Below the pieces are notes generated by a model, which saw nothing but the letters and a program-made list of their open reading frames with translations, was not told where the DNA came from and ran no database searches. The translations under genes and the position numbers were made by a program. From Erysipelotrichaceae bacterium (lineage in GTDB: Bacteria > Bacillota_I > Bacilli_A > RFN20 > CAG-826): DNA of 64,000 bases. The DNA lies in NCBI GenBank assembly GCA_015059185.1, contig SVAY01000006.1, positions 14,070 to 78,069 of the forward strand. The letters run 5' to 3'. This document shows, in pieces, positions 27,380-46,239 of this stretch (positions within the stretch are counted from its first letter, which is position 1; the number at the start of each line of letters is the position of its first letter).

Positions 27380-27422
27380 TTATGAAAAAAATTAAAAGGA
27401 GAGGTAACCCTCTCCAATTTTG
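27380..27422. terminator. strong (bidirectional) terminator ending the nucleoside-transporter/guaA' operon
   Basis: GGAGAGG-GTTA/TAAC-CCTCTCC hairpin with an A-run upstream and a T-run downstream. Confidence 0.7.
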
Positions 27423-27435
27423 ATAATGATTTATC

Positions 27436-28413
27436 TTATTCCCACTCGATTGTTGCGACTGGTTTTGGTGATAAGTCATATAAGACTCTATTAACACCTT
27501 TAACTTCGTTTAAGATACGATTAACAATCTTATTTAAGATTTCGTATGGGATTGGTTCAATTGTCGCGCTTGTGGCGTCTACTGAGTTAACAGCACGGAT
27601 CACAACTGGCCATTCAAATGTACGTTTATTATCTTTAATACCTGTGCTTCTGAAATCTGGAACGATGGTGAAGTATTGCCATACTTTTCCTTCAAGTCCT
27701 GCATTAGCGAATTCTTCTCTAAGAATCGCGTCTGCTTCTCTTACAGCTTCAAGTCTATCACGGGTAATCGCGCCGACACATCTCACACCAAGACCTGGTC
27801 CTGGGAATGGTTGACGATAGACCATATTATGTGGTAAACCAAGAGCTTCACCAACAACACGAACTTCGTCTTTATATAAGAACTTCACTGGTTCAACGAG
27901 TTCAAACTTAAGATCTTCTGGAAGACCACCAACGTTGTGGTGAGCCTTGATGCCTTTAGATTCTAAGATATCTGGATAAATTGTACCTTGACCTAAGAAA
28001 GCAATACCGTCTAATTTACGAGCTTCTTCAGCGAAGACATCAATGAAGATTTTGCCGATAATTTTACGTTTGGTTTCTGGATCGCTGACACCTGCTAAAG
28101 CATCTAAGAATCTGTCAACTGCGTCAACATAGATTAAGTTTGCACCGAGTTCTTCTTTAAATACTTTGATAACTTGTTCTGGTTCGCCTTTACGTAATAA
28201 GCCATGGTTCACGTGAACACATGTTAAGTTATTACCAATAGCTTTGATTAATAAAGCAGCACAGACTGAGCTATCAACTCCTCCAGAAAGGGCTAATAAC
28301 ACTTTCTTATCACCCACTTGGGCTCTAATTGCTGCAATTTGTTCGGCGATGAATTTATCCGCTAATTCTTTAGTGGTAATTCTTGCCATATTTGGATCTC
28401 TAACATCTGACAT
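27436..28413 (-). CDS. GMP synthase ATP-pyrophosphatase + dimerisation domain only (GuaA C-domain paralog; no glutaminase domain)
   Basis: 325 aa with [19 protein letters not shown] and [10 protein letters not shown] motifs, ending TIEWE; about 60% identical to residues ~200-510 of the full guaA in this window; strong RBS AAGGAGG. Confidence 0.8.
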
Positions 28414-28432: not shown

Positions 28433-29416
28433 TTATCTATCTTCACGGAAATATGTAATACCTAATCCAGCCGGTGGTTGAGCGTTCTTTTTATTAAACA
28501 CACTAGTCAAGATTAAGACTAAGATTGTAGCTGCATAAGGTACAATAGAGAACATTTGCATTTGGACAGAACTAAGTGATAAGAAGTTTGGTAACACTTG
28601 TAATGCTCCGAATAAAAGGGAAGCAAAGATACAAATTGTTGGCTTCCACATTGAGAAGATAACAAGTGATAAGGCTAACCAACCAAAGGCATCAACTGCA
28701 TCCTTAGGGTTGAACATACCTTTATATAAATCGATTTCAAGAGCCATACCACCTAAGCCAGCAATTGCTGCACCTAAGATAGTAGCGATGTATCTATATT
28801 TATCAACATTGATACCGGCAGCGTCAGCAGCAGCAGGGTTTTCACCACACGCTCTTAAGTTAAGGCCAACTCTAGTACGGCTGATAATGATTGCAGCAAC
28901 AATAGCAACAATAATAGCAGTGTATGTAAATAAGGATTGAGAGAAGAAGATTTGACCAAACCAGTTTCCACCCCATTCAAATCCGCTTGGGACGAATAAG
29001 GATTGAATCATGAGTCCAGCCTCGCTCATTCTTGTGGTTGGAATTAAACCAATGAAGTAACAGGATAAACCAACACCAAATGTGGTAATGGTAAGACCTG
29101 TAACATTATGATTACACTTTAATGTGACAGTGAAGAAGGAGAATAATAGTCCACCAACGGCAGCAAATAACATTGCAAATAACATTGGCATAAAAAGCAC
29201 TAAGAATGGATTAAGTGCGGTTTCTGGACCGATACTATCAAGATAAACTCTTTCTCCTAAGATACCACCAAGTGCACCAAGATACATGATGCCTGGAATA
29301 CCCATATTTAAGTGTCCACTCTTTTCAGTAATAGTTTCACCAGTACTACCAAAGATGAAGACAGTCGCGAACTTAATCGCTCTAGCAAGGAATGCTACAA
29401 ACATTGTTCCAGTCAT
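28433..29416 (-). CDS. ABC transporter permease (BMP/nucleoside-type, NupC/YufQ-like)
   Basis: 327 aa multi-TM protein in the BMP-ABC operon context. Confidence 0.7.
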   Translation of the reverse strand: MTGTMFVAFLARAIKFATVFIFGSTGETITEKSGHLNMGIPGIMYLGALGGILGERVYLDSIGPETALNPFLVLFMPMLFAMLFAAVGGLLFSFFTVTLKCNHNVTGLTITTFGVGLSCYFIGLIPTTRMSEAGLMIQSLFVPSGFEWGGNWFGQIFFSQSLFTYTAIIVAIVAAIIISRTRVGLNLRACGENPAAADAAGINVDKYRYIATILGAAIAGLGGMALEIDLYKGMFNPKDAVDAFGWLALSLVIFSMWKPTICIFASLLFGALQVLPNFLSLSSVQMQMFSIVPYAATILVLILTSVFNKKNAQPPAGLGITYFREDR

Positions 29417-29418
29417 AC

Positions 29419-30861
29419 TTATTTAGCCTCCTTGTTATTCTTTTTAGTTTTGCTAATAGGTTTTTTACTTGCTACCTTTTTAAGAGGTTTCTTTTCCTCT
29501 TTCTTTGGAGCAGGTTTACTAGCTTTTTTTGTAACCTTTACAGGTTTTTTAATTTCTTTTATTTCTTTTTTAACAGGTTTTTTAATTTCTTCTTTAGGAG
29601 TTTCAACCTTTGTTTCTTTTTGAGGTTCTTCTTTAATTTCTTCCACTACTGGAGTAGCTTCTTCAACTGGTTTAACTTCTTCAATAGTTTCACTCGCTTC
29701 CTCTTTAAGAGCACTAGCGTTACTAACTTGTCCTTCATAACTAGGTACGGTTAAAACTTTTGCTCCTTGTTCACCATTAACACCATGACGACGTTTGATT
29801 TCATAGTTCACAAAGAATTCACTAGCAATAACAACTAAGAAGAACATTCCAGTAATAATGTTTGAGAAATCACTAGAGCTCATACCCATTGAGCTAGCGG
29901 CATATGTTGAACCGTTTTGGAAGATACCAACAAGTACTGCATATAAAATCATTTGGCCAGGATTAAATCCACCAAGCCATGCGATTAAAACACCGGTAAA
30001 TCCTCTACCACCAGCTAAGCCAGTTGATAAGGTGTGATGGTGACCAGCGACGAGCAAAAATCCAACAAGCCCACATAAGGCACCACTAAGAATCATAGTT
30101 CTAATAATGACCTTCTTAACATTGATACCGACATATCTAGCAGTATTGACTGATTCACCAACAACGCTTAATTCATAACCATGTTTAGTTTTCTTTAAGT
30201 ACACAATCATTAAAGCAACAACGATAGCAACAATAATGATGTTGAGCAAATATTTAAGACCTAAATCTGGTAAACCACCATTGGTTAATAAACCGAATAC
30301 TTGGGAACCACTTGGAACCCAAATGTTAATGCAAAGAGCAATAAGCGCCATCGCGACATAATTCATCATTAAGGTGAATAATGTTTCATTGGTGTTAAAG
30401 AATGCTTTGAATATGGCCGGAATAACTGCCCAGATGATGCCAGACACTACAGCTGTCACAAGTGAAACAAGGATAATCACGATATCACTTGCATTCATGA
30501 ATTTAGAAATTGCCGCGGTCGCTAAACAACCAACAAGGATTTGTCCTTCACCACCGATATTCCAAAATTTCATTTTAAATGCTGGAGCAAGAGCGAAGGC
30601 CACTAATAATAACAAGCCAATAGTCTCTAATAAAGACATCAACACTTCAATATCTGTAAAATCAAAACATCCGATAAACATTTGTTGATAGAATCTTAAG
30701 AAAGATCCTGGGGTAAGCATGGTACAAATAAGACCAGCTAATAATAATGCTACAAAGAAACCAGCAATTTTAATTAACCAGTAAGTTTTTCTTGGAGTGT
30801 CTAATCTTTTAACGACATGGAAAGGCATTTCAAATCTACTACCTGAACCTGCTAATCTCAT
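29419..30861 (-). CDS. ABC transporter permease (NupB/YufP-like) with a ~110-aa K/E/P-rich low-complexity C-terminal tail
   Basis: Permease core ~360 aa, then ...EEVKPVEEATPVVEEIKEEPQKETKVETPKEEIKKPVKK...KKNNKEAK. Confidence 0.7.
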   Translation of the reverse strand: MRLAGSGSRFEMPFHVVKRLDTPRKTYWLIKIAGFFVALLLAGLICTMLTPGSFLRFYQQMFIGCFDFTDIEVLMSLLETIGLLLLVAFALAPAFKMKFWNIGGEGQILVGCLATAAISKFMNASDIVIILVSLVTAVVSGIIWAVIPAIFKAFFNTNETLFTLMMNYVAMALIALCINIWVPSGSQVFGLLTNGGLPDLGLKYLLNIIIVAIVVALMIVYLKKTKHGYELSVVGESVNTARYVGINVKKVIIRTMILSGALCGLVGFLLVAGHHHTLSTGLAGGRGFTGVLIAWLGGFNPGQMILYAVLVGIFQNGSTYAASSMGMSSSDFSNIITGMFFLVVIASEFFVNYEIKRRHGVNGEQGAKVLTVPSYEGQVSNASALKEEASETIEEVKPVEEATPVVEEIKEEPQKETKVETPKEEIKKPVKKEIKEIKKPVKVTKKASKPAPKKEEKKPLKKVASKKPISKTKKNNKEAK

Positions 30862-32675
30862 TATTCTGCCCTCCCTTTAGTCATTAGTAATCCAACTTCT
30901 TCTTTAGTGACTTTAGTTGGATCAACGATACCTGCGACCTTGCCGCCACTTAATACTAAGATACGGTCACACAAGGCCATTAAGACATCTAAATCTTCAC
31001 CAACAAATAAGACGGCTGTGCCCTTTTCTTTTTGTTGATTGAGTAAATCATAAATTAAATATGAGGAGTTGATATCAAGACCTCTAACTGGATAAGCAGC
31101 CATAAAGACTTTTGGTGAAGAAGAGATTTCTCTACCAACAAGAACTTTTTGGATGTTACCACCAGATAATTTTCTAACTTGAGTATGAACACCAGGAGTA
31201 ACAACTTCTAGTTCATCAACGATCTCATTGGCAAGAGCTTCAGGTTTCTTTCTATTAAGGAAGATACCTCTACCCTTACGATAGCTTCTAAGCATCATGT
31301 TATCAGTTAAGTCCATAGAACCGACTAAGCCCATACCAAGTCTATCTTCAGGAACGAAGCTAAGTTTGATACCTAAATCTCTAATTTCAAGTGGAGACTT
31401 GTCTTTTAAATCAATGATTTCATCTTCATAGAAAATAATTTCTTCTTTATTGACAGCTTCAATGATTTGTTTTTTACTCCAGTGAGTTAAATCTACTCTA
31501 TTACCCACTAGATCATGGAACGCTCCATTACGAGACATTTCTTTCACTTGCTTAATAGAGTGGTGATATAAAGTTAATGGTTTTTCTTTCTTTGGATTAT
31601 GGAAAATCATTTCACCGGTCTTATAGTGTCTTAATCCAGCGATAGCGTCTAATAATTCTTTTTGACCACTGCCAGAGATACCAGCGACACCTAAGATTTG
31701 TCCACTTCTAAGGACGAAGGAAACACTATCTAAAGCGGTAGTACCATCCATATTTTGAACGGTGAGGTTAGAGATGAATAATCTATCTTCCACATGCTCC
31801 ATCTTCTCACGCTTAATTTGAAGATTGACCTTACGTCCAACCATCATATTAGTGAGTTCTTTTTCGTTTGTATTTTTAGTTTCAACAGTACCGATATATT
31901 TACCTTTTCTAAGAACGACAACGTTATCACTGATTTCCATAACTTCGTTAAGTTTATGGGTAATAATGATAATAGTCTTACCCATTTCTCTCATATTTCT
32001 AAGGACATCAAATAATCCTTTGATTTCTTGAGGGGTAAGAACAGCGGTTGGTTCATCAAGAATGAGTATATCAACACCACGATAGAGGGCTTTTACGATT
32101 TCAAGTGTTTGCTTTTGAGAAACACTCATATCATAAACTTTTTGATAAGGATCGACTTTAAATCCATATTTTTCACAGATATTAGTGACACGTTCTGCAG
32201 CAGCAGCGACATTAAAGCCACGGCTACGACGAGCATATCTCTTATATCTTTTAATTGTTGCTTTTCTTTCTTCTTCGCTCAAAGAAGTGTCATTAAGAGC
32301 TTTTTGAATGTGCTCTCTTGATTTCTCCTTTTGATCGATATTAAAAAGTTTATAATCGTCCTTTGTTAATCCAAGTAAGATGTTTTCAGTCGCATTGAAG
32401 ACATCGACGAGTTTAAAGTGTTGGTGAATCATTCCAATCTTTTGTTTGAAGGCATCACGAGGGGAGTTGATATGAACTTCCTTTCCATGAACAAAAACCT
32501 CGCCTTCATCTTGTTTATAGATACCAGCAATCATGTTCATTAAGGTTGTCTTACCACTACCATTTTCGCCTAAAATGGAATAAATCTTTCCTTCTTCTAA
32601 AGCAAAGGAAACATTTTGGTTCGCGACCACTTTTCCAAAGGTTTTAGTAATGTTTTTAAATCTTATTGCTTCCAT
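30861..32675 (-). CDS. ABC transporter ATP-binding protein with duplicated ATPase domains (nucleoside/sugar type)
   Basis: Two Walker A motifs (GENGSGKTT; GISGSGQKE) and two signature motifs; 604 aa. Confidence 0.8.
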   Translation of the reverse strand: MEAIRFKNITKTFGKVVANQNVSFALEEGKIYSILGENGSGKTTLMNMIAGIYKQDEGEVFVHGKEVHINSPRDAFKQKIGMIHQHFKLVDVFNATENILLGLTKDDYKLFNIDQKEKSREHIQKALNDTSLSEEERKATIKRYKRYARRSRGFNVAAAAERVTNICEKYGFKVDPYQKVYDMSVSQKQTLEIVKALYRGVDILILDEPTAVLTPQEIKGLFDVLRNMREMGKTIIIITHKLNEVMEISDNVVVLRKGKYIGTVETKNTNEKELTNMMVGRKVNLQIKREKMEHVEDRLFISNLTVQNMDGTTALDSVSFVLRSGQILGVAGISGSGQKELLDAIAGLRHYKTGEMIFHNPKKEKPLTLYHHSIKQVKEMSRNGAFHDLVGNRVDLTHWSKKQIIEAVNKEEIIFYEDEIIDLKDKSPLEIRDLGIKLSFVPEDRLGMGLVGSMDLTDNMMLRSYRKGRGIFLNRKKPEALANEIVDELEVVTPGVHTQVRKLSGGNIQKVLVGREISSSPKVFMAAYPVRGLDINSSYLIYDLLNQQKEKGTAVLFVGEDLDVLMALCDRILVLSGGKVAGIVDPTKVTKEEVGLLMTKGRAE

Positions 32676-32741: not shown

Positions 32742-34082
32742 TTAAGCGTTTGCTTCAGGTAAGTTGATACCATCGATATCGAGATCGAAGTATGGAGCAC
32801 TGCATTCGTAGCTTTCATTGAAGTAAGATGGAAGGAGTTCAGTTCCTTTAACAACAACTTCAGTGTCACCAACGAAGTCACCATCGGTGTCAGCTTTATA
32901 AGAGGTGAGGTGCTTGTTTTCATCAACTTTAGCACCAACATTCTTTTTATCTGTAACTGTTACTGTGAATTTAGAAGTATCAAATACTTTCATAGTACCG
33001 GATTTGATAGCTTCTTCTATAAGAGCAAATGCTGTTTGCGCAGAAGTTTTAACGGCTGGATAGTTCTTTACAACATTGTCCCAGTTGACATTATATTCGA
33101 CAGAACCAGTAGCGACTGTGCCAGTCCAGTTGTGGTTCTTTTCATTAGCAATTGCTCTACCTTCATATAAAGAGTTAACGATTTCTTTATAATATGGAGC
33201 CCAGTTGATACGGCTGTAAGCTAAATAAGTGTCAGGACAATCTTTTTTAGTTTCAATGTTATATGTAACATTTGGAATCTTCTTTTCTTCACAGACACCT
33301 GGAGCACCCATGGAGTCAGCGTGTTGGGAAACTAAGGCAGCACCACCTTCGATTAAAGCGGTAGCAGCACTTGCTTCAGCATTAACATCGTACCAAGAGT
33401 TTGTGAATTTAACATCCATGGTAACTTTTTCTGGATCGACGCCAGAAATTTCAAAAGCGCCTCTAACACCTAAGAACCAAGCGGTATAACCACTCTTAAC
33501 TTCGGCGTATGGGAAAGCACCAACATAACCGACTTTGGTTGCTGGGAAATCATCAGGATCAGAAACTGAAGGTATTTTATCAGCCAATAATCTTAAACCA
33601 GCAGCGAAACCAGCTAAGTATCTACCTTCATAGATAGAAGCGAAAGCGTTGTGATAGTTGTCTAAGTTAGCATTCTTAGCATTGGTACCAGTGGCGTGAT
33701 AGAATTGAACGGTTGGCCATTCTTGAGCAGCCTTTAACATGTAGGATTGGTGACCGAAAGAGTCAGCGATAACAACGTTACAACCTTTCTTGACTAAGTC
33801 TTTAGCGGCTTCATAGCATTGTTCGTTTTCATCTTTACCAGTTAAGATACAGTCATCGGTGAGGACCATTTTGGATTCACCTAAATCTTTAGCAGCTTCT
33901 TTTAAAGCATTGATAAAGTTAGCATCATATGTGGATTTGTCATCGTGTAAGCAGATAATACCAACTTTAACTGGATTACCCTTTTCATAAGTTGCACCTT
34001 TAACTCCACATCCAGTCATGGCTAAGAGTGAAGCAGCACTGATAGCGGAAACTGATAATGCACGTATAATGGTTTTTTTCAT
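32742..34082 (-). CDS. BMP-family ABC substrate-binding lipoprotein (PnrA/Med-like purine-nucleoside receptor)
   Basis: Lipobox LLAMTGC, BMP-family sequence, strong RBS AAGGAGG. Confidence 0.75.
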   Translation of the reverse strand: MKKTIIRALSVSAISAASLLAMTGCGVKGATYEKGNPVKVGIICLHDDKSTYDANFINALKEAAKDLGESKMVLTDDCILTGKDENEQCYEAAKDLVKKGCNVVIADSFGHQSYMLKAAQEWPTVQFYHATGTNAKNANLDNYHNAFASIYEGRYLAGFAAGLRLLADKIPSVSDPDDFPATKVGYVGAFPYAEVKSGYTAWFLGVRGAFEISGVDPEKVTMDVKFTNSWYDVNAEASAATALIEGGAALVSQHADSMGAPGVCEEKKIPNVTYNIETKKDCPDTYLAYSRINWAPYYKEIVNSLYEGRAIANEKNHNWTGTVATGSVEYNVNWDNVVKNYPAVKTSAQTAFALIEEAIKSGTMKVFDTSKFTVTVTDKKNVGAKVDENKHLTSYKADTDGDFVGDTEVVVKGTELLPSYFNESYECSAPYFDLDIDGINLPEANA

Positions 34083-34099
34083 TTTTGTTTTTCCTCCTT

Positions 34100-34262
34100 A
34101 GTTCTTTAAAAATAAAAATGAGCTTCCTATAATTGGAAGCCTCTACTTTAAATTAAACGAGGAAATACAACAAACGGTTATTTCTTCTTTAATTTAATTC
34201 GTAGCACTAGATTATACGGTCTAGCGTAGAGACTACCCACCAATTAGGGAATTATACGAATG
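34100..34262 (-). ncRNA. purine (guanine-type) riboswitch-like aptamer (34197-34261) plus terminator expression platform (hairpin 34120-34143 and U-run) in the BMP operon leader
   Basis: Recognised by eye: P1 AUUCGUA/UACGAAU; J1/2 UAAU; J2/3 GUCUCUAC (consensus GUUUCUAC); P3 with L3 CCGUAUAAU; C directly before the 3' strand of P1 (guanine-type). P2 is short and atypical; not verified by covariance model. Confidence 0.5.
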
Positions 34263-34285
34263 TCGATTTCTCAACCGACACCGAT

Positions 34286-34313
34286 ATTATAAAGGTTTAA
34301 AAGTTCATTGCAA
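34286..34313 (-). promoter_or_regulatory. sigma-A-type promoter of the BMP operon (TTGCAA-16-TATAAT)
   Basis: Hexamers read from the sequence about 25 nt upstream of the aptamer. Confidence 0.45.
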
Positions 34314-34431: not shown

Positions 34432-34830
34432 TTAGTAATTATCTATAAAATCTCTTGGGGTTATTATTTTTGGTTTATCTATTTTGAATTCTAATAAATC
34501 CTTATCGCCAGTTATTAAAATATCAGCATCAATTAATAATGCAGCCTCTATAACAGGCACATCATTCTTATCCCTTATCAATATTTCAGTTTTATTACTA
34601 TTAACATGAACAATATTAAGTTGTGGAAGTAAAAAGAAGAGATTACTCACAAATACACCTAAAAGTTCAGGTTTTTTCTTATTAACCACACTATATAATT
34701 CAGATAAACAATAATCTGATGTAAAAAGAGAATATGGGTATTCGCTAGCCTTTATTATGGCTTTACCTGGAATTGAATTAGAATTATAAAATGAAGAAAA
34801 TAGTACATTTGTATCAACAAATACAATCAT
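34432..34830 (-). CDS. vapC: PIN-domain toxin (VapC-like)
   Basis: 132 aa with N-terminal VDTNV and a conserved acidic pattern; 4-bp overlap with the upstream antitoxin gene. Confidence 0.65.
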   Translation of the reverse strand: MIVFVDTNVLFSSFYNSNSIPGKAIIKASEYPYSLFTSDYCLSELYSVVNKKKPELLGVFVSNLFFLLPQLNIVHVNSNKTEILIRDKNDVPVIEAALLIDADILITGDKDLLEFKIDKPKIITPRDFIDNY

Positions 34831-35087
34831 TTACCATAACGTACTTCGTTAACTAGTTTTTGTACATCATCATCATTTTTAATGCCTAACTCATCGGCAA
34901 TGCCTTTCATAGAATCTTGCACTACTTCTAATGCTGCCTTAAGTGAGGTAACAAGAATTATTTTATTCCCATCAACCAAAAAAGATACACGATCACCAAT
35001 GGATATGCCCATTTGTTCACGCACATCCTTAGGAATGGTGATTTGCCATTTCGACGTTACTCTTGCAGTTTCAACAAATGAATTCAT
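34827..35087 (-). CDS. vapB: AbrB/MazE/SpoVT-family antitoxin (VapB-like)
   Basis: 86 aa; swapped-hairpin-type N-terminus (QITIPKDVREQMGISIGDRV); RBS AGGAGG. Confidence 0.65.
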   Translation of the reverse strand: MNSFVETARVTSKWQITIPKDVREQMGISIGDRVSFLVDGNKIILVTSLKAALEVVQDSMKGIADELGIKNDDDVQKLVNEVRYGK

Positions 35088-35318: not shown

Positions 35319-36734
35319 ATGCGTAAGACCAAAATTATTTGCACTATTGGTCCCAGTAGTGATGATGAGGCCATTTTAATCGAAATGGCAAAAGCGGGAA
35401 TGAATGTCGCAAGATGTAATTTTTCTCACGGTGACCACAATCAACATCGAGCCAGAATGGATATGATTAAAAAGGTGAGGGAAGAACTTAACTTGCCTAT
35501 TGCCATCATGCTTGACACCAAAGGACCTGAATATCGTATCGGTTTATTTAAAAATAATGAGGTGAACCTCAATAAAGGTGATAAATTTACCTTCACTACC
35601 GAAGAAATCATGGGTGATGAAACTATCGTCTCCGTGAGTTATAAAAAATTAACCGAAGATCTTGAAGTTGGTGACACAATCTTAGTAAATAATGGTCTAG
35701 TCGTATTTGAAGTTAATAAAATAGAAGGAAATAAAATTATTACCACTGTCAAAGAAGGTGGTAGATTATCAAATCGTAAATCGATGAGTTTCCCTAATAA
35801 ACTCTTAAAGCAAGAATTCTTATCTAGTCATGATAAAGAAGACTTATTATTTGGTATTGAAAATGATATCGATTATGTTGCTGCAAGCTTCGTGAGCTGC
35901 AAACAAGATATGCTCGATATGAGAGACTTCTTAGACGCTCATGGAGGAGAGAATATCGATATCATCGCTAAGATAGAAAATAGACATGGCGTTGATAATA
36001 TCAAAGAGATATGTGAAGTTGCTGATGGAATCATGGTTGCTAGAGGTGACTTAGGTGTGGAAGTACCATTTATTGAAGTTCCAACAATTCAAAAACGCTT
36101 AATTAGAGAATGTCGACTCATGGGTAAGATTGTTGTTACCGCCACAGAAATGCTTGAAAGTATGACCACTAATCCTCGTCCAACGAGAGCAGAAATCAGT
36201 GACGTTGCTAATGCTGTATATGATGGAACATCCGCAATTATGCTTTCTGGAGAATCTGCGAACGGTAAATACCCAGTAGAAGCAACTAGAAATATGGCAA
36301 AGATTGCTGAATATACAGAACAGCAAATTGATTACGCTAAACGCTTTAGAGAAACTGACTTTGCCATCCGTAATCCAGTCGATGCCGTGAGTCACGCGAC
36401 ATGTGATATGGCACTCGATACTAAAGCGAAAGCTATTGTCTGTACATCTATTTCTGGATCAACAGTTAAAATGGTTGCAAGATTTAGATGTCCTATAGAT
36501 ATATTAGGCGTTACGACAAGCGAAAAAGTTTGGTATAAACTCGCACTTGCGTGGGGCGTTACTCCAGTCATCACTGGAACATATAATCACACTACCCCAA
36601 TGCTTAATAATGCTTTATTCCTTGCCACCACTACTTTCAACTTAAAGCAAGGTGATTATGTAATTATCACCGGAGGAAGTGTAGGAGCAAGAAAAGGCTC
36701 GACAGACCTTATTAAATTAGAAGTTGTTCAATAA
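35319..36734 (+). CDS. pyk: pyruvate kinase
   Basis: 471 aa Pyk-family sequence (MRKTKIICTIGP...). Confidence 0.9.
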   Translation: MRKTKIICTIGPSSDDEAILIEMAKAGMNVARCNFSHGDHNQHRARMDMIKKVREELNLPIAIMLDTKGPEYRIGLFKNNEVNLNKGDKFTFTTEEIMGDETIVSVSYKKLTEDLEVGDTILVNNGLVVFEVNKIEGNKIITTVKEGGRLSNRKSMSFPNKLLKQEFLSSHDKEDLLFGIENDIDYVAASFVSCKQDMLDMRDFLDAHGGENIDIIAKIENRHGVDNIKEICEVADGIMVARGDLGVEVPFIEVPTIQKRLIRECRLMGKIVVTATEMLESMTTNPRPTRAEISDVANAVYDGTSAIMLSGESANGKYPVEATRNMAKIAEYTEQQIDYAKRFRETDFAIRNPVDAVSHATCDMALDTKAKAIVCTSISGSTVKMVARFRCPIDILGVTTSEKVWYKLALAWGVTPVITGTYNHTTPMLNNALFLATTTFNLKQGDYVIITGGSVGARKGSTDLIKLEVVQ

Positions 36735-36783: not shown

Positions 36784-39096
36784 TTATGCTATCGTTGGCC
36801 AATTGCCACCAGTGATACGATAACCTTGTTTATCCCAAGCTAGTTCTGTTACTAGAAGTGGATATTGGTAGAGTTTTTCTTCCTCTTCCTTCTCACTCAC
36901 TCCATTAGGGAGTTCAACGGCAATGGCTCCTTCAGGACCAATCACACTATTAGCATAGCAATAACATTTGTTATATAGTCCTGCACTACTATCAACGAAT
37001 CTTCCAACCTTATGATTCTTTGAATATTCTAGAACTGTCGCAGAAGCAATAGACTTTGTGATGATGCTGGTGCTCGTAGAAACACCAACAAATCCACCAG
37101 TATTTAATGTCATATCTGCTAAGGCGGAATTATTACCCATATCCACTTTACCAGCTGATAAGGAGTTAGAAATATTACCTTTATTAATAGCGGCAAATAA
37201 TCCCATTGTAGAATCTGCCTCAACTCCGTCTCTAAATAAGTAGCCTTTAATTAAGCAGGCATTAACAACACCTTTTTCTTCATTAACCCCAATAAGTCCT
37301 CCAGCAGTAGCGGGATAATTGGTTCTTGTTCTGAGGTTATAATGACCCTCTTCATAATCTTCATATGAAGTCTCGATATAGGAGTTAATGACATTACCGT
37401 TATTAACTGCAATCAAGCCACCAAATGTGAGAGTTGATTCAAAGCTATAATGAATCATCTTTTGAATCGCATCTACCTTACCTAAAACTGCAGAATGAAT
37501 AACCTTTCCATTATTGGTAGCCACAAGACCTCCAAATGTCATATGGTCTGTACTATAAGTATCTTTCGCAGTTTGCACTTGTTCGCCAGTAATAGTCTGG
37601 GTGATATCATTCTTTAAAACACAGTTAGAAATCGTACCATTATTCTCTCCGACAAAGCCACTGGCTCTGGTGGTTAAAACCGCTTCTAATTTTCCAGAAA
37701 TGATTGAATCATAACCATATTGGAAACGATCAGCGTAAGTAAATGAGACATTATCTTCAACAGTACAGTTTCTAATGCTTCCTTTATTATTCGCAGCATA
37801 TAAACCAAATAATTGATTATAACTACTTCTTGTTCCAGCGGAAGTTAAAGTCGCATTAATCACTGCATCTTCTAAATTGACATTATCTAGATATGCCCCT
37901 TGTTCAATGGTGTTCACTAATAATGCAGCACTGATATTTCCATCACGAGGAACATGATTAAAGTCGGCATGAACTTTACCAGATATAATGGCTGTAAAGT
38001 CTTTAAATGTAATATTTGATAATGAACCAGTTAATGTCTTAATCCAACCAATGTTTAAAACGGCTGGAGTTGAATAGTTAACAGTAAATTCTTTAATGGC
38101 ATGATTCTTCCCATCGATATGAGATTTCACTTCGTTAATCACTTCTAATGCTTCTGATTCAAAAGAAATATCGTTTTTTAAGTAATAATAGCCTGTGCTA
38201 GATAAAGCATATAAGAATTGTTCTTTAGTGGAGATAGCACTGACAAGGTTCCAATCTAAATGCACTTTGATATCTTTATCGATAATATAGTTATCATCAT
38301 ATTCCTTGCTACTGCTACCACCTTTGATTTCATCATGCATATAAACCCTAGTTAACAACCAATATTTATCTGGGTCAGGATTCTTAGTAGCATAGTCATC
38401 CGTGAGCTGCTTTTTGAAATCAGCAATGGTTGAACCCACATCAACTTTAATCGTCTGTTGTTTATAAGTTTCACGGTTATCAGTATAAACGTAAACATTA
38501 TAGTAAGTGATCTCTTCAAACTTGGCTACCAAGGTAATATTCTTAGGGGCACTAGTAGGTAAAGTGTCAATCGCTACTCCATCAAGAGTCCAACCTAAGA
38601 AACGATATCCTTCTCGAGTGACAGCAGGTAGTTTATCACTGCTCTTTATATTATATGTCTCAATCTTATTATCGAATTTATCCCCTTCTTTGATACCTTG
38701 ATAAGTGATGGTGTATTCAATTGGTAAATAATGAAGGGTAACTTTACGAACAAGTGTTCCGGAATCATCTTTAACAGTAGGAGCAAAGTTCACACTATAT
38801 TGCACTTTTTCAAGACTTCCATAATCAAATATGGAGGCAAAGCTTTCATCGTTATCATTGATGGCAGAATATAAACCTTTATATGTATAATAGTCTCTTT
38901 TTATGGCCTCTGGTTCTTCAAGTGCCGCTAGTTGAGATTTCCAAGTATCATAATCGTCAATATTGACACGGAGAACATATCGATCATCGACTTCATTATA
39001 AAAAGAGATGATGTTAGTAGATGTATCTCCTCCGCATGAGGCTAGAGACAACACCATAAAAGCACTGCTTAGAAAAATTAATCCTTTTTTATTCAT
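36784..39096 (-). CDS. large surface lipoprotein with an InlB B-repeat (Listeria-Bacteroides repeat) and multiple GLUG-motif repeats
   Basis: Lipobox LSLASC; EGYRFLGWTLDG hallmark; repeated (F/A)GGL(I/V)AxN..G motifs; the start (MNKKGLIF at 39096) is uncertain because the RBS is weak. Confidence 0.6.
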   Translation of the reverse strand: MNKKGLIFLSSAFMVLSLASCGGDTSTNIISFYNEVDDRYVLRVNIDDYDTWKSQLAALEEPEAIKRDYYTYKGLYSAINDNDESFASIFDYGSLEKVQYSVNFAPTVKDDSGTLVRKVTLHYLPIEYTITYQGIKEGDKFDNKIETYNIKSSDKLPAVTREGYRFLGWTLDGVAIDTLPTSAPKNITLVAKFEEITYYNVYVYTDNRETYKQQTIKVDVGSTIADFKKQLTDDYATKNPDPDKYWLLTRVYMHDEIKGGSSSKEYDDNYIIDKDIKVHLDWNLVSAISTKEQFLYALSSTGYYYLKNDISFESEALEVINEVKSHIDGKNHAIKEFTVNYSTPAVLNIGWIKTLTGSLSNITFKDFTAIISGKVHADFNHVPRDGNISAALLVNTIEQGAYLDNVNLEDAVINATLTSAGTRSSYNQLFGLYAANNKGSIRNCTVEDNVSFTYADRFQYGYDSIISGKLEAVLTTRASGFVGENNGTISNCVLKNDITQTITGEQVQTAKDTYSTDHMTFGGLVATNNGKVIHSAVLGKVDAIQKMIHYSFESTLTFGGLIAVNNGNVINSYIETSYEDYEEGHYNLRTRTNYPATAGGLIGVNEEKGVVNACLIKGYLFRDGVEADSTMGLFAAINKGNISNSLSAGKVDMGNNSALADMTLNTGGFVGVSTSTSIITKSIASATVLEYSKNHKVGRFVDSSAGLYNKCYCYANSVIGPEGAIAVELPNGVSEKEEEEKLYQYPLLVTELAWDKQGYRITGGNWPTIA

Positions 39097-39186
39097 AACT
39101 GTCTCTAAAAATATGATACATGCTAAAAGAGTAATCAAAAAGTATTATTTATAACAAAAGTCCCGCTTCATCCGCGGGACTAAGTA

Positions 39187-45765: not shown

Positions 45766-45850
45766 TGGTGCGGCTAGCAGGAATCGAACCTGTACGGGTT
45801 GCCCCACTAGATCCTAAGTCTAGCGCGTCTGCCAGTTCCGCCATAGCCGC
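45766..45850 (-). tRNA. tRNA-Leu (anticodon TAG)
   Basis: Hand-folded 85-nt cloverleaf with long variable arm, anticodon loop CUUAGGA, encoded CCA. Confidence 0.8.
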
Positions 45851-45891
45851 AAATAGTTAACCCCTCTAAATAGAGGGGTATTTCTTTAAAT

Positions 45892-45967
45892 TGGTGCCGT
45901 CTATCGGAATCGAACCAACAACCTACTGATTACAAATCAGTTGCTCTGCCAATTGAGCTAAGACGGC
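45892..45967 (-). tRNA. tRNA-Thr (anticodon TGT)
   Basis: 76-nt cloverleaf, anticodon loop UUUGUAA, T-loop TTCGATT, encoded CCA. Confidence 0.75.
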
Positions 45968-45976
45968 ATTTCTTTT

Positions 45977-46051
45977 TGGTGGACACTACAGGGATCGAAC
46001 CTGTGACCTCTTCCGTGTGAAGGAAGCGTTCTCCCGCTGAACTAAGTGTCC
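45977..46051 (-). tRNA. tRNA-Val (anticodon CAC)
   Basis: 75-nt cloverleaf, anticodon loop UUCACAC, encoded CCA. Confidence 0.75.
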
Positions 46052-46162
46052 AATCGCTTATTAATACTACCAAACACTTTTCCTTTTTTCAATTGATAAG
46101 GCTGAGGTCGGGGGTTCTTATAAAAAATAAACCATGGAAGGTTTACTTTTTTAAAATCCATT

Positions 46163-46239
<77 letters not shown>

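Follow-up and report, generated by a model that had tools for sequence, protein, structure and literature searches.

Which metabolite does the leader of a Bmp-type transporter operon in an uncultured Erysipelotrichaceae bacterium respond to, and by what route would it switch? We analysed a stretch of 64,000 nucleotides (nt) from contig SVAY01000006.1 of assembly GCA_015059185.1 (hereafter the window). All coordinates are window positions 1-64,000, and the leader, the aptamer and the operon are all encoded on the minus strand. The original prediction, made from the letters alone, had described this leader as a guanine-type purine riboswitch with an unusually short P2 helix, arranged as an OFF switch of a BMP nucleoside ATP-binding cassette (ABC) transporter operon. 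Our analysis points, with a probability of about 0.85, to a guanine-I class purine riboswitch that acts as a transcriptional OFF switch of a five-gene operon.

The purine aptamer and its compact P2 arm

In a scan of the whole 64 kb on both strands against Rfam, the only riboswitch match was to the Purine family (RF00167), at 34279..34182 of the minus strand, with 43.9 bits against a gathering score of 37 (E 5.6e-4). This is the scan that the original prediction had proposed as its own check, with the lack of a significant score as the outcome that would count against it; the match lies above the curated threshold. In the family alignment, the window copy lacks one pair of P2 and one base of L2, has a U·U at the base of P2 and carries an additional base in L3, which explains the modest score.

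The aptamer (34197..34261), as read from the sequence, consists of P1 (AUUCGUA, 34261..34255, paired with UACGAAU, 34203..34197; 7 bp), J1/2 (UAA, 34254..34252, followed by U25), P2/L2 (UUCCCU-AAUUGG-UGGGUA, 34251..34234), an 8-nt J2/3 (GUCUCUAC, 34233..34226), P3/L3 (GCUAGA-CCGUAUAA-UCUAGU, 34225..34206) and a 2-nt J3/1 (GC, G73-C74, 34205..34204). Every leader element that had been listed in the original prediction is found on the minus strand, including the C directly 5' of the P1 3' strand, which is C74 at 34204.

Relatives were collected in two ways. Genome contigs searched at the protein level with the downstream Bmp protein as query yielded 55 loci with at most 51% identity, almost all from metagenome-assembled genomes (MAGs) of uncultured gut or rumen Clostridia and Bacilli, and nearly the same aptamer was present at two of these 55 loci (L044, labelled Erysipelotrichaceae, and L052). 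A pattern scan of metagenome contigs, in which only TATAAT, GG, GTNTCTAC and CCGTA were fixed at compact spacing, gave 83 stretches that represent 46 distinct aptamers from gut and rumen metagenomes. Across these 46 homologous aptamers, 89.8% of the cells in P1, P2 and P3 are paired against 75% in shuffles, and 15 of the 19 pairs change on both sides; none of 500 shuffles and no slid register approaches this support. A subfamily model (R1) gives the window aptamer 86.9 bits, with the window sequence itself among those used to build the model. No model was built on a MAFFT alignment of mixed compact and canonical aptamers (A1), in which the structure of P2 was not taken into account. Judged by its sequence, the leader is a genuine and ordinary purine riboswitch, an added member of a well-known family. 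Its unusual traits appear to be limited to a slightly shortened arm and an atypical predicted route of switching, that is, variations on a known theme.

The shortened arm (34234..34251) comprises six pairs in the window (U-A, U·U, C-G, C-G, C-G and U·U) and a 6-nt loop, AAUUGG, according to the Rfam alignment and the family comparison. The subfamily as a whole has a P2 of six pairs (U25-A45 plus five) and a 6-nt L2 of the form RAUUGG, where the consensus has seven pairs and a 7-nt RAUAUGG. The three central P2 pairs covary across the 46 sequences (CG to UA, AU or GC). Half of them (23) close the loop with U-A or A-U as the inner pair and the other 23 with a non-standard pair, mostly U·U; non-standard pairs are also frequent at the second position counted from the junction. 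The comparison indicates that the short P2 is real and is common to the whole subfamily rather than a defect. The original prediction was right to call P2 short, but its description as CCC-8 nt-GGG counted only the Watson-Crick pairs of the window copy, against six pairs and a 6-nt loop in the family. All 17 compact relatives that were run against Rfam exceed the Purine threshold, with 47-67 bits, so that the compact form can be recognised as part of the known family.

The L2 and L3 loops bear on whether the two arms dock. L2 A-U-U is invariant in the 46 relatives and was not imposed by the search pattern. L2 GG and L3 CC were fixed by the pattern, so that their invariance among the relatives is not independent evidence. 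L3 occurs in the subfamily as CCGUAA, CCGUAAA or CCGUAUAA (6, 7 or 8 nt), and the window has the 8-nt form. In solved purine aptamers, L2 GG and L3 CC make two inter-loop pairs (PMC3159443). When examined for docking of the guanine-I kind, through G37-C61, G38-C60 and the A/U quartets, the window aptamer has the GG and the CC, with one base fewer in L2 and one base more in L3 than the consensus. Because GG and CC are kept, loop docking is probably retained in an altered form rather than lost; the remainder of the docking would have to differ from that of xpt. On purine-aptamer helix lengths, we found in the literature only the paper on the Mesoplasma florum 2'-deoxyguanosine (2'-dG)-I aptamer and no description of a guanine aptamer with a shortened P2.

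Ligand class and the downstream operon

The ligand-contact residues U22, U47, U51 and C74 are all present, which is the set of the guanine-I class, and the junctions are free of insertions (J1/2 UAA, J2/3 8 nt, J3/1 2 nt). Only two junction differences were detected in the window copy, C48 and G73. The first is common to the whole Bmp-leader group and lies at a position that makes no ligand contact in guanine-I structures; the second is found only in the window and in two contigs with an identical aptamer (L099 and L126), with A, U or G at position 73 elsewhere in the subfamily.

We compared these positions with the features that set the other purine classes apart. The adenine class is defined by C74U (PMC10556655), and this U74 is absent from the window aptamer, which has C at 34204. 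The 2'-dG-II class has C51, the determinant of nucleoside over nucleobase recognition, together with a 2-nt insertion in J3/1 (PMC6847200). C51, which is shared with 2'-dG-I, and the insertion are both absent from the window, which has U51 and a 2-nt J3/1. Xanthine-II is characterised by U51G plus junction insertions, guanine-II by junction insertions and 2'-dG-III by changes in all three junctions (PMC9295807). In the window aptamer we found neither U51G, nor the insertions in J2-3 and J3-1 of xanthine-II and guanine-II, nor the 2'-dG-III changes. In the 8-oxoguanine (8-oxoG) variant U47 is deleted and the riboswitch is associated with an 8-oxoG deaminase (PMC10556655); the window aptamer retains U47 and precedes bmp. 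By homology we infer guanine as the ligand; hypoxanthine or xanthine might bind more weakly, and 2'-dG is unlikely because position 51 is U, not C. Of the specificities that the original prediction had left side by side, guanine, with the hypoxanthine or xanthine option, stands and 2'-dG becomes unlikely.

The operon starts with a Bmp/PnrA-family lipoprotein of 446 amino acids (aa), the substrate-binding protein (32742..34082; PF02608, E 5.5e-14). Next come an ABC ATPase that carries two nucleotide-binding domains (32675..30861) and a pair of BPD_transp_2 permeases (30861..29419 and 29416..28433), all identified with Pfam and NCBIfam, and these four proteins together make up a Bmp/PnrA-type ABC importer. 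The last gene, which starts 19 nt past the second permease, encodes a stand-alone GMP synthase ATP-pyrophosphatase subunit of 325 aa (27436..28413; TIGR00884 guaA_Cterm, E 2.8e-133). In alignments it spans the "subunit B" structures 6JP9 and 2DPL from end to end, and residues ~190-525 of full-length GuaA. The glutamine amidotransferase domain is absent from this protein and none is encoded adjacent to it. A terminator-like hairpin with a U-run (GGAGAGGG-UUA-CCUCUCC; 27385..27415) likely marks the end of the operon. A stand-alone GMP synthase gene with 82-85% identity is also found beside the riboswitch-Bmp operon in relatives (L052, L072, L090, L115, L120, L125, L080, L061 and L077), where it lies upstream in the same direction or convergent downstream, and not inside the operon as in the window.

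The closest solved structures of the binding protein are 3S99 (E 2e-22) and AtzT (6PI5, E 8e-14), over about 250 residues. Both are described as purine-base binders (adenine or guanine), with a Kd of 110 nM for guanine in the case of AtzT (PMC6834077). By analogy, the substrates of the transporter may be purine bases rather than nucleosides. Because the nearest solved relatives bind purine bases, the annotation "nucleoside transporter" is not secure, and purine base or nucleoside importer would be the safe label. The original prediction holds for the Bmp/ABC operon and is less secure for the nucleoside substrate.

A family best known for nucleosides at the head of the operon nevertheless raises the question whether the aptamer has come to recognise a nucleoside (guanosine or 2'-deoxyguanosine) or a different purine derivative instead. 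Such a shift would fit the Bmp/PnrA assignment of the first gene and the departure of the peripheral loops from the consensus, as in the M. florum 2'-dG-I aptamer (PMC3159443). One compact relative, L093, run in addition to the 17 above, scored best within the clan against the 2dG-II model, although below the threshold of that model (43.1 versus 60 bits). We nevertheless consider a shifted specificity very unlikely. The window retains U51, with neither C51 nor the 2-nt J3/1 insertion (PMC6847200); it keeps U47, unlike the 8-oxoG aptamers; and the absence of U51G and of junction insertions excludes xanthine-II and guanine-II. A swap of the L2-L3 region in 2'-dG-II left selectivity unaffected (PMC6847200), and free purine bases are the ligands of the closest solved structures related to the binding protein.

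Leader architecture and the predicted switch

The guanine-I aptamer is set in a leader with recognisable control elements on both sides. A promoter-like TTGCAA, 16-nt spacer and TATAAT (34286..34313) matches 10 of 12 consensus positions, and a (C)ATAAT -10 element is found at the same distance upstream of the 5' hairpin in related leaders. We infer that transcription starts near G34279. Seven bases after the promoter-like site, which ends at 34286, begins the 5' hairpin P0 (GUCGGUU-GAGA-AAUCGAC, 34262..34279), which abuts P1 and is predicted in every leader fold. Per-sequence folds of Bmp-leader relatives have a hairpin at the same position with other stems (GUCAAAG/CUUUGAC, GUCAGUG/CACUGG, GUCGAUA/UAUCGGC), and the hairpin was not found with compact aptamers upstream of non-Bmp genes. 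Column-based covariation of P0 is weak (57% paired), with MAFFT misaligning loops of differing length. P0 is presumably a 5'-terminal hairpin that stabilises the mRNA, and it may stack on P1.

Between P1 and the terminator, the linker is predicted to fold into a spacer hairpin (34147..34196; -9.2 kcal/mol, z -2.3), and in all 40 homologous leaders that were folded it forms a single hairpin (median -9.5 kcal/mol). Its column-based covariation is 53% paired and better at slide -2, the sequences being too divergent among leaders for a comparison by aligned columns. The intrinsic terminator (34108..34141), detected in a terminator scan, lies about 55 nt downstream of the aptamer and consists of GGCUUCC-AAUUAUA-GGAAGCU (34141..34121), then C-A-UUUUUAUUUUU with a U-rich run at 34118..34108. 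Its stem is 99.3% paired across the 40 leaders, with compensatory changes at three pairs. The ribosome-binding site AAGGAGG (34099..34093) and the ATG (34082..34080) of the bmp gene follow (34080..34099 in all), in agreement with the list of open reading frames. In L052, L115 and L125 a U-run directly follows P1, and we considered P1 itself as a terminator. On folding, this U-run proved to form the 5' side of a spacer hairpin rich in U and A, the GUAGAGGC terminator is still present downstream, and the idea was set aside as less likely.

Close inspection of the complementarity within the leader revealed a candidate antiterminator. Its first strand, GGGUAGUCUCUAC (34226..34238), covers the P2 3' strand and all of J2/3, and its second, GUAGAGGCUUCC (34135..34146), consists of GUAGA, which lies outside the terminator stem, and GGCUUCC, the terminator 5' strand. 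In the window 11 of 12 positions are paired. Across relatives the contiguous complementarity of the P2 3' strand plus J2/3 with the terminator edge is 8-14 bp, with an 8-bp core paired in essentially all 40 leaders. GUAGA is conserved although it is outside the terminator stem, and the terminator alone therefore does not explain its conservation. For a transcript that ends after the terminator 5' strand, the antiterminator is the minimum-energy fold (-37.8 versus -31.5 kcal/mol with the aptamer enforced). The same holds for 37 of the 40 homologous leaders when truncated before the terminator 3' strand (median difference -9.1 kcal/mol). The helix crosses P1 and uses one P2 strand, and it therefore excludes the three-way junction, while P3 and the spacer hairpin stay within its loop.

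Purine riboswitches are generally described as "P1 helix-regulated", the P1 3' strand re-pairing with the expression platform (PMC5049679). In the window, the prediction offers the P1 3' strand only 4 bp for such re-pairing (CUAC/GUAG), and the predicted partners of A34142 and G34141 are U49 and C48, not the P1 strand. What appears to be new here is that the predicted antiterminator would use the P2 3' strand and J2/3, that is, the ligand pocket, rather than the P1 3' strand.

These elements suggest the following sequence of events. Transcription would start near G34279, and P0 would form first, followed by the three-way-junction aptamer. When guanine (or hypoxanthine/xanthine) is abundant, it would pair with C74, enclosed by U22, U47 and U51, and lock J2/3, P1 and P2. 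GAGGCUUCC would then be left with GGAAGCUC as its only partner, the terminator and U-run would form, and the polymerase would halt before the ribosome-binding site. When purine is scarce, J2/3 would be unstructured, and GUAGAGGCUUCC would pair with GGGUAGUCUCUAC as soon as it is transcribed. The resulting antiterminator would enclose P3 and the spacer hairpin, topologically exclude P1/P2 and occupy the terminator 5' strand, with read-through into the operon. The OFF arrangement that was originally proposed agrees with this and is supported by the covarying terminator and the co-oriented Bmp/ABC operon.

Several observations weigh against this reading of the leader. J2/3 is invariant, so that the antiterminator core is conserved without compensatory change, and only one-sided changes (for example G·U to A-U) were detected. 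Even at full length, the antiterminator lies ~2-4 kcal/mol below the aptamer plus terminator in the nearest-neighbour model. CUAC/GUAG pairing occurs in the full-length minimum-energy fold. The window copy is also the weakest of its family, with the lowest Rfam score (43.9) among the relatives examined. Its P2 is reduced to three G-C pairs flanked by two U·U, it has G73 in place of the usual A, and its L3 is the 8-nt form.

With regard to the energies, the median difference between the two folds across the 40 homologues shrinks to -2.75 kcal/mol in full-length leaders. Since the full-length energies still favour the antiterminator, the OFF state depends on ligand and tertiary energies that are outside the model. 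Ligand binding and loop docking could plausibly overturn a gap of ~3 kcal/mol.

The CUAC/GUAG pairing would be expected if the riboswitch were functional and switched in the classical way through its P1 3' strand, with CUAC (C74-C77) pairing with GUAG (34146..34143) and extending the spacer hairpin, and with the J2/3 complementarity incidental. The general description of purine riboswitches as P1 helix-regulated is in line with this. These 4 bp, however, leave the terminator stem free and cannot prevent termination, whereas the longer J2/3 pairing found across relatives covers the terminator 5' strand and dominates the truncated folds. Classical P1 switching here seems rather unlikely to us.

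The low score, the two U·U mismatches in P2 and G73 are what would be expected of a decaying, non-functional aptamer, in which case the downstream hairpin would be a constitutive attenuator or a leftover terminator. The identical aptamers of L099 and L126, however, come from two independent metagenome contigs; U·U at the two P2 positions is common in the family (23 and 14 of the 46 sequences); and relatives that precede other purine genes likewise differ at position 73 (A, U, G). The leader is, moreover, intact in its promoter, P0 hairpin, spacer, complementarity of the antiterminator strands, terminator and ribosome-binding site. We regard decay as highly improbable, and retain the functional OFF switch as our reading.

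The terminator loop AAUUAUA (34128-34134) is fully complementary over 7 bp to UAUAAUU (34250-34256: the P1 top, J1/2 and the first P2 base), and this pairing appears in the predicted antiterminator fold of the 160-nt transcript. Since relatives preserve the sequence of this loop only in part, we do not claim the pairing as an extension of the antiterminator.

Relatives, significance and comparison with known systems

In addition to Bmp operons, the compact aptamer was found upstream of an NCS2-type purine permease, a guanine-deaminase-like gene, purL and xpt (named by eye from N-terminal translations). Using the subfamily model, we detected purine aptamers upstream of 15 of the 55 Bmp-homologue loci, often in the order riboswitch-xpt-bmp. 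By these annotations the gene set is a classic guanine regulon. Bmp-homologue loci with canonical aptamers use different platforms, and platform diversity is therefore ordinary here. Our literature search produced no report of Bmp transporters preceded by a guanine riboswitch.

Other platforms also occur with the compact aptamer. In L044 (5825-5990), L062, L105 and L108 CAUUC lies downstream as a possible partner of the P1 3' strand (CGAAUG), with UUUUUCAUUUUUU after it, and UGGAAAGUC (P2 3' strand plus J2/3) is complementary to GACUUUCUA farther downstream. L104 (aptamer 666-730) and L113 have A48, and their P2 3' strand plus J2/3 (GGAAAGUA) is complementary to UACUUUUU within a U-run; position 48 and its partner change together relative to the window group, with A-U for C-G. 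An aptamer upstream of a Bmp homologue in L016 (2144-2211) has an 18-nt P2/L2 with a different P3/L3 (GCUGUGGC-CCGGAA-GCCAGC) and reaches 61 bits with the subfamily model. In eight Clostridia MAG loci (L035, L032, L031, L024, L038, L040, L034 and L007), a canonical aptamer with a 7-pair P2 is followed by an xpt-like gene and then the Bmp homologue. In these loci the sequence of the P1 3' strand is repeated (UAUUGGCA) just before the terminator, which indicates a different platform design. In L067, L077, L092, L094, L132 and L133 the compact aptamer precedes a second kind of lipoprotein, with the N-terminus ...YDIKTGDTYELKVNKDLDFS...

Directly upstream of the riboswitch promoter, the window encodes a toxin-antitoxin pair on the minus strand (34432-35087), a PIN-domain toxin (132 aa) and an AbrB/MazE-type antitoxin (86 aa) with a 4-nt overlap. 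Further features are a pyruvate kinase (35319-36734, plus strand), a likely surface protein of 784 aa with a Listeria-Bacteroides repeat and GLUG motifs (36784-39138, minus strand) and a cluster of four tRNAs (45769-46239, minus strand).

For annotation, these results would place a Bmp-type ABC importer and a stand-alone GMP synthase subunit of an uncultured gut/rumen Firmicute under guanine control, and suggest that the transporter carries purine bases or nucleosides that feed GMP synthesis. Three features seem to us to merit a record: the subfamily with a compact P2/L2, the P0 hairpin and the antiterminator that is predicted to invade the ligand pocket. As natural sequences demonstrate, a purine aptamer can lose one pair from its P2 arm and one base from its L2 loop with the family still recognisable. 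The leader family also appears to link sensing to termination in that the terminator 5' strand competes directly for the pocket strand J2/3, a simple design that is useful for thinking about riboswitch construction and engineering. Both features are of modest interest, and neither overturns existing knowledge. A stronger proposal would be that the compact P2/L2 marks a distinct guanine-I sub-architecture of gut/rumen Firmicutes (6-pair P2, RAUUGG, 6-8 nt L3, obligatory P0 and J2/3-invading antiterminator) whose folding kinetics or purine selectivity are unlike those of the xpt type. If this were true, the compact form could be tuned to hypoxanthine or xanthine, or have another decision window during transcription. 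We consider it unlikely, and offer it as speculation.

Among known systems, the 2'-dG-I aptamer of M. florum (mfl; PMC3159443) likewise belongs to the purine family and, with altered helix lengths and truncated loops, is evidence that the periphery can be remodelled. It retains both inter-loop G-C pairs, the residues for which are also present in the window. In mfl, however, the pocket is changed (C at the equivalent of position 51, and other junction changes), L3 is truncated and the P2 and P3 lengths are swapped, whereas in the window the guanine pocket is kept and P2 and L2 are shortened instead. The 2'-dG-II class (RF03165; PMC6847200) has the same fold and belongs to the same clan, in which one compact relative scores sub-threshold; it differs in needing C51 and the 2-nt J3/1 insertion, against U51 and a 2-nt J3/1 in the window. 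Guanine-II, xanthine-II, 2'-dG-III (PMC9295807) and 8-oxoG (PMC10556655) riboswitches share the guanine-I three-stem junction and the occurrence in Firmicutes, but differ in junction changes, mostly ON logic and other gene associations, none of which is found in the window. At the protein level, 3S99 and AtzT (PMC6834077) are the closest solved relatives of the window binding protein, although similarity is low and the window protein is ~90 residues longer. The guanine-I riboswitch of Bacillus subtilis xpt-pbuX (RF00167) has the same three-stem junction, U22/U47/U51/C74, J1/2 UAA and J2/3 GUNUCUAC, the same L2 GG and L3 CC, an intrinsic-terminator OFF platform and a regulon of purine salvage and transport. 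By comparison, the window aptamer has six rather than seven P2 pairs, a 6-nt L2 (RAUUGG) rather than the 7-nt RAUAUGG, an 8-nt L3, C48 and G73, and an extra 5' hairpin abutting P1, and its predicted antiterminator would be drawn from the P2 3' strand and J2/3 rather than from the P1 3' strand.

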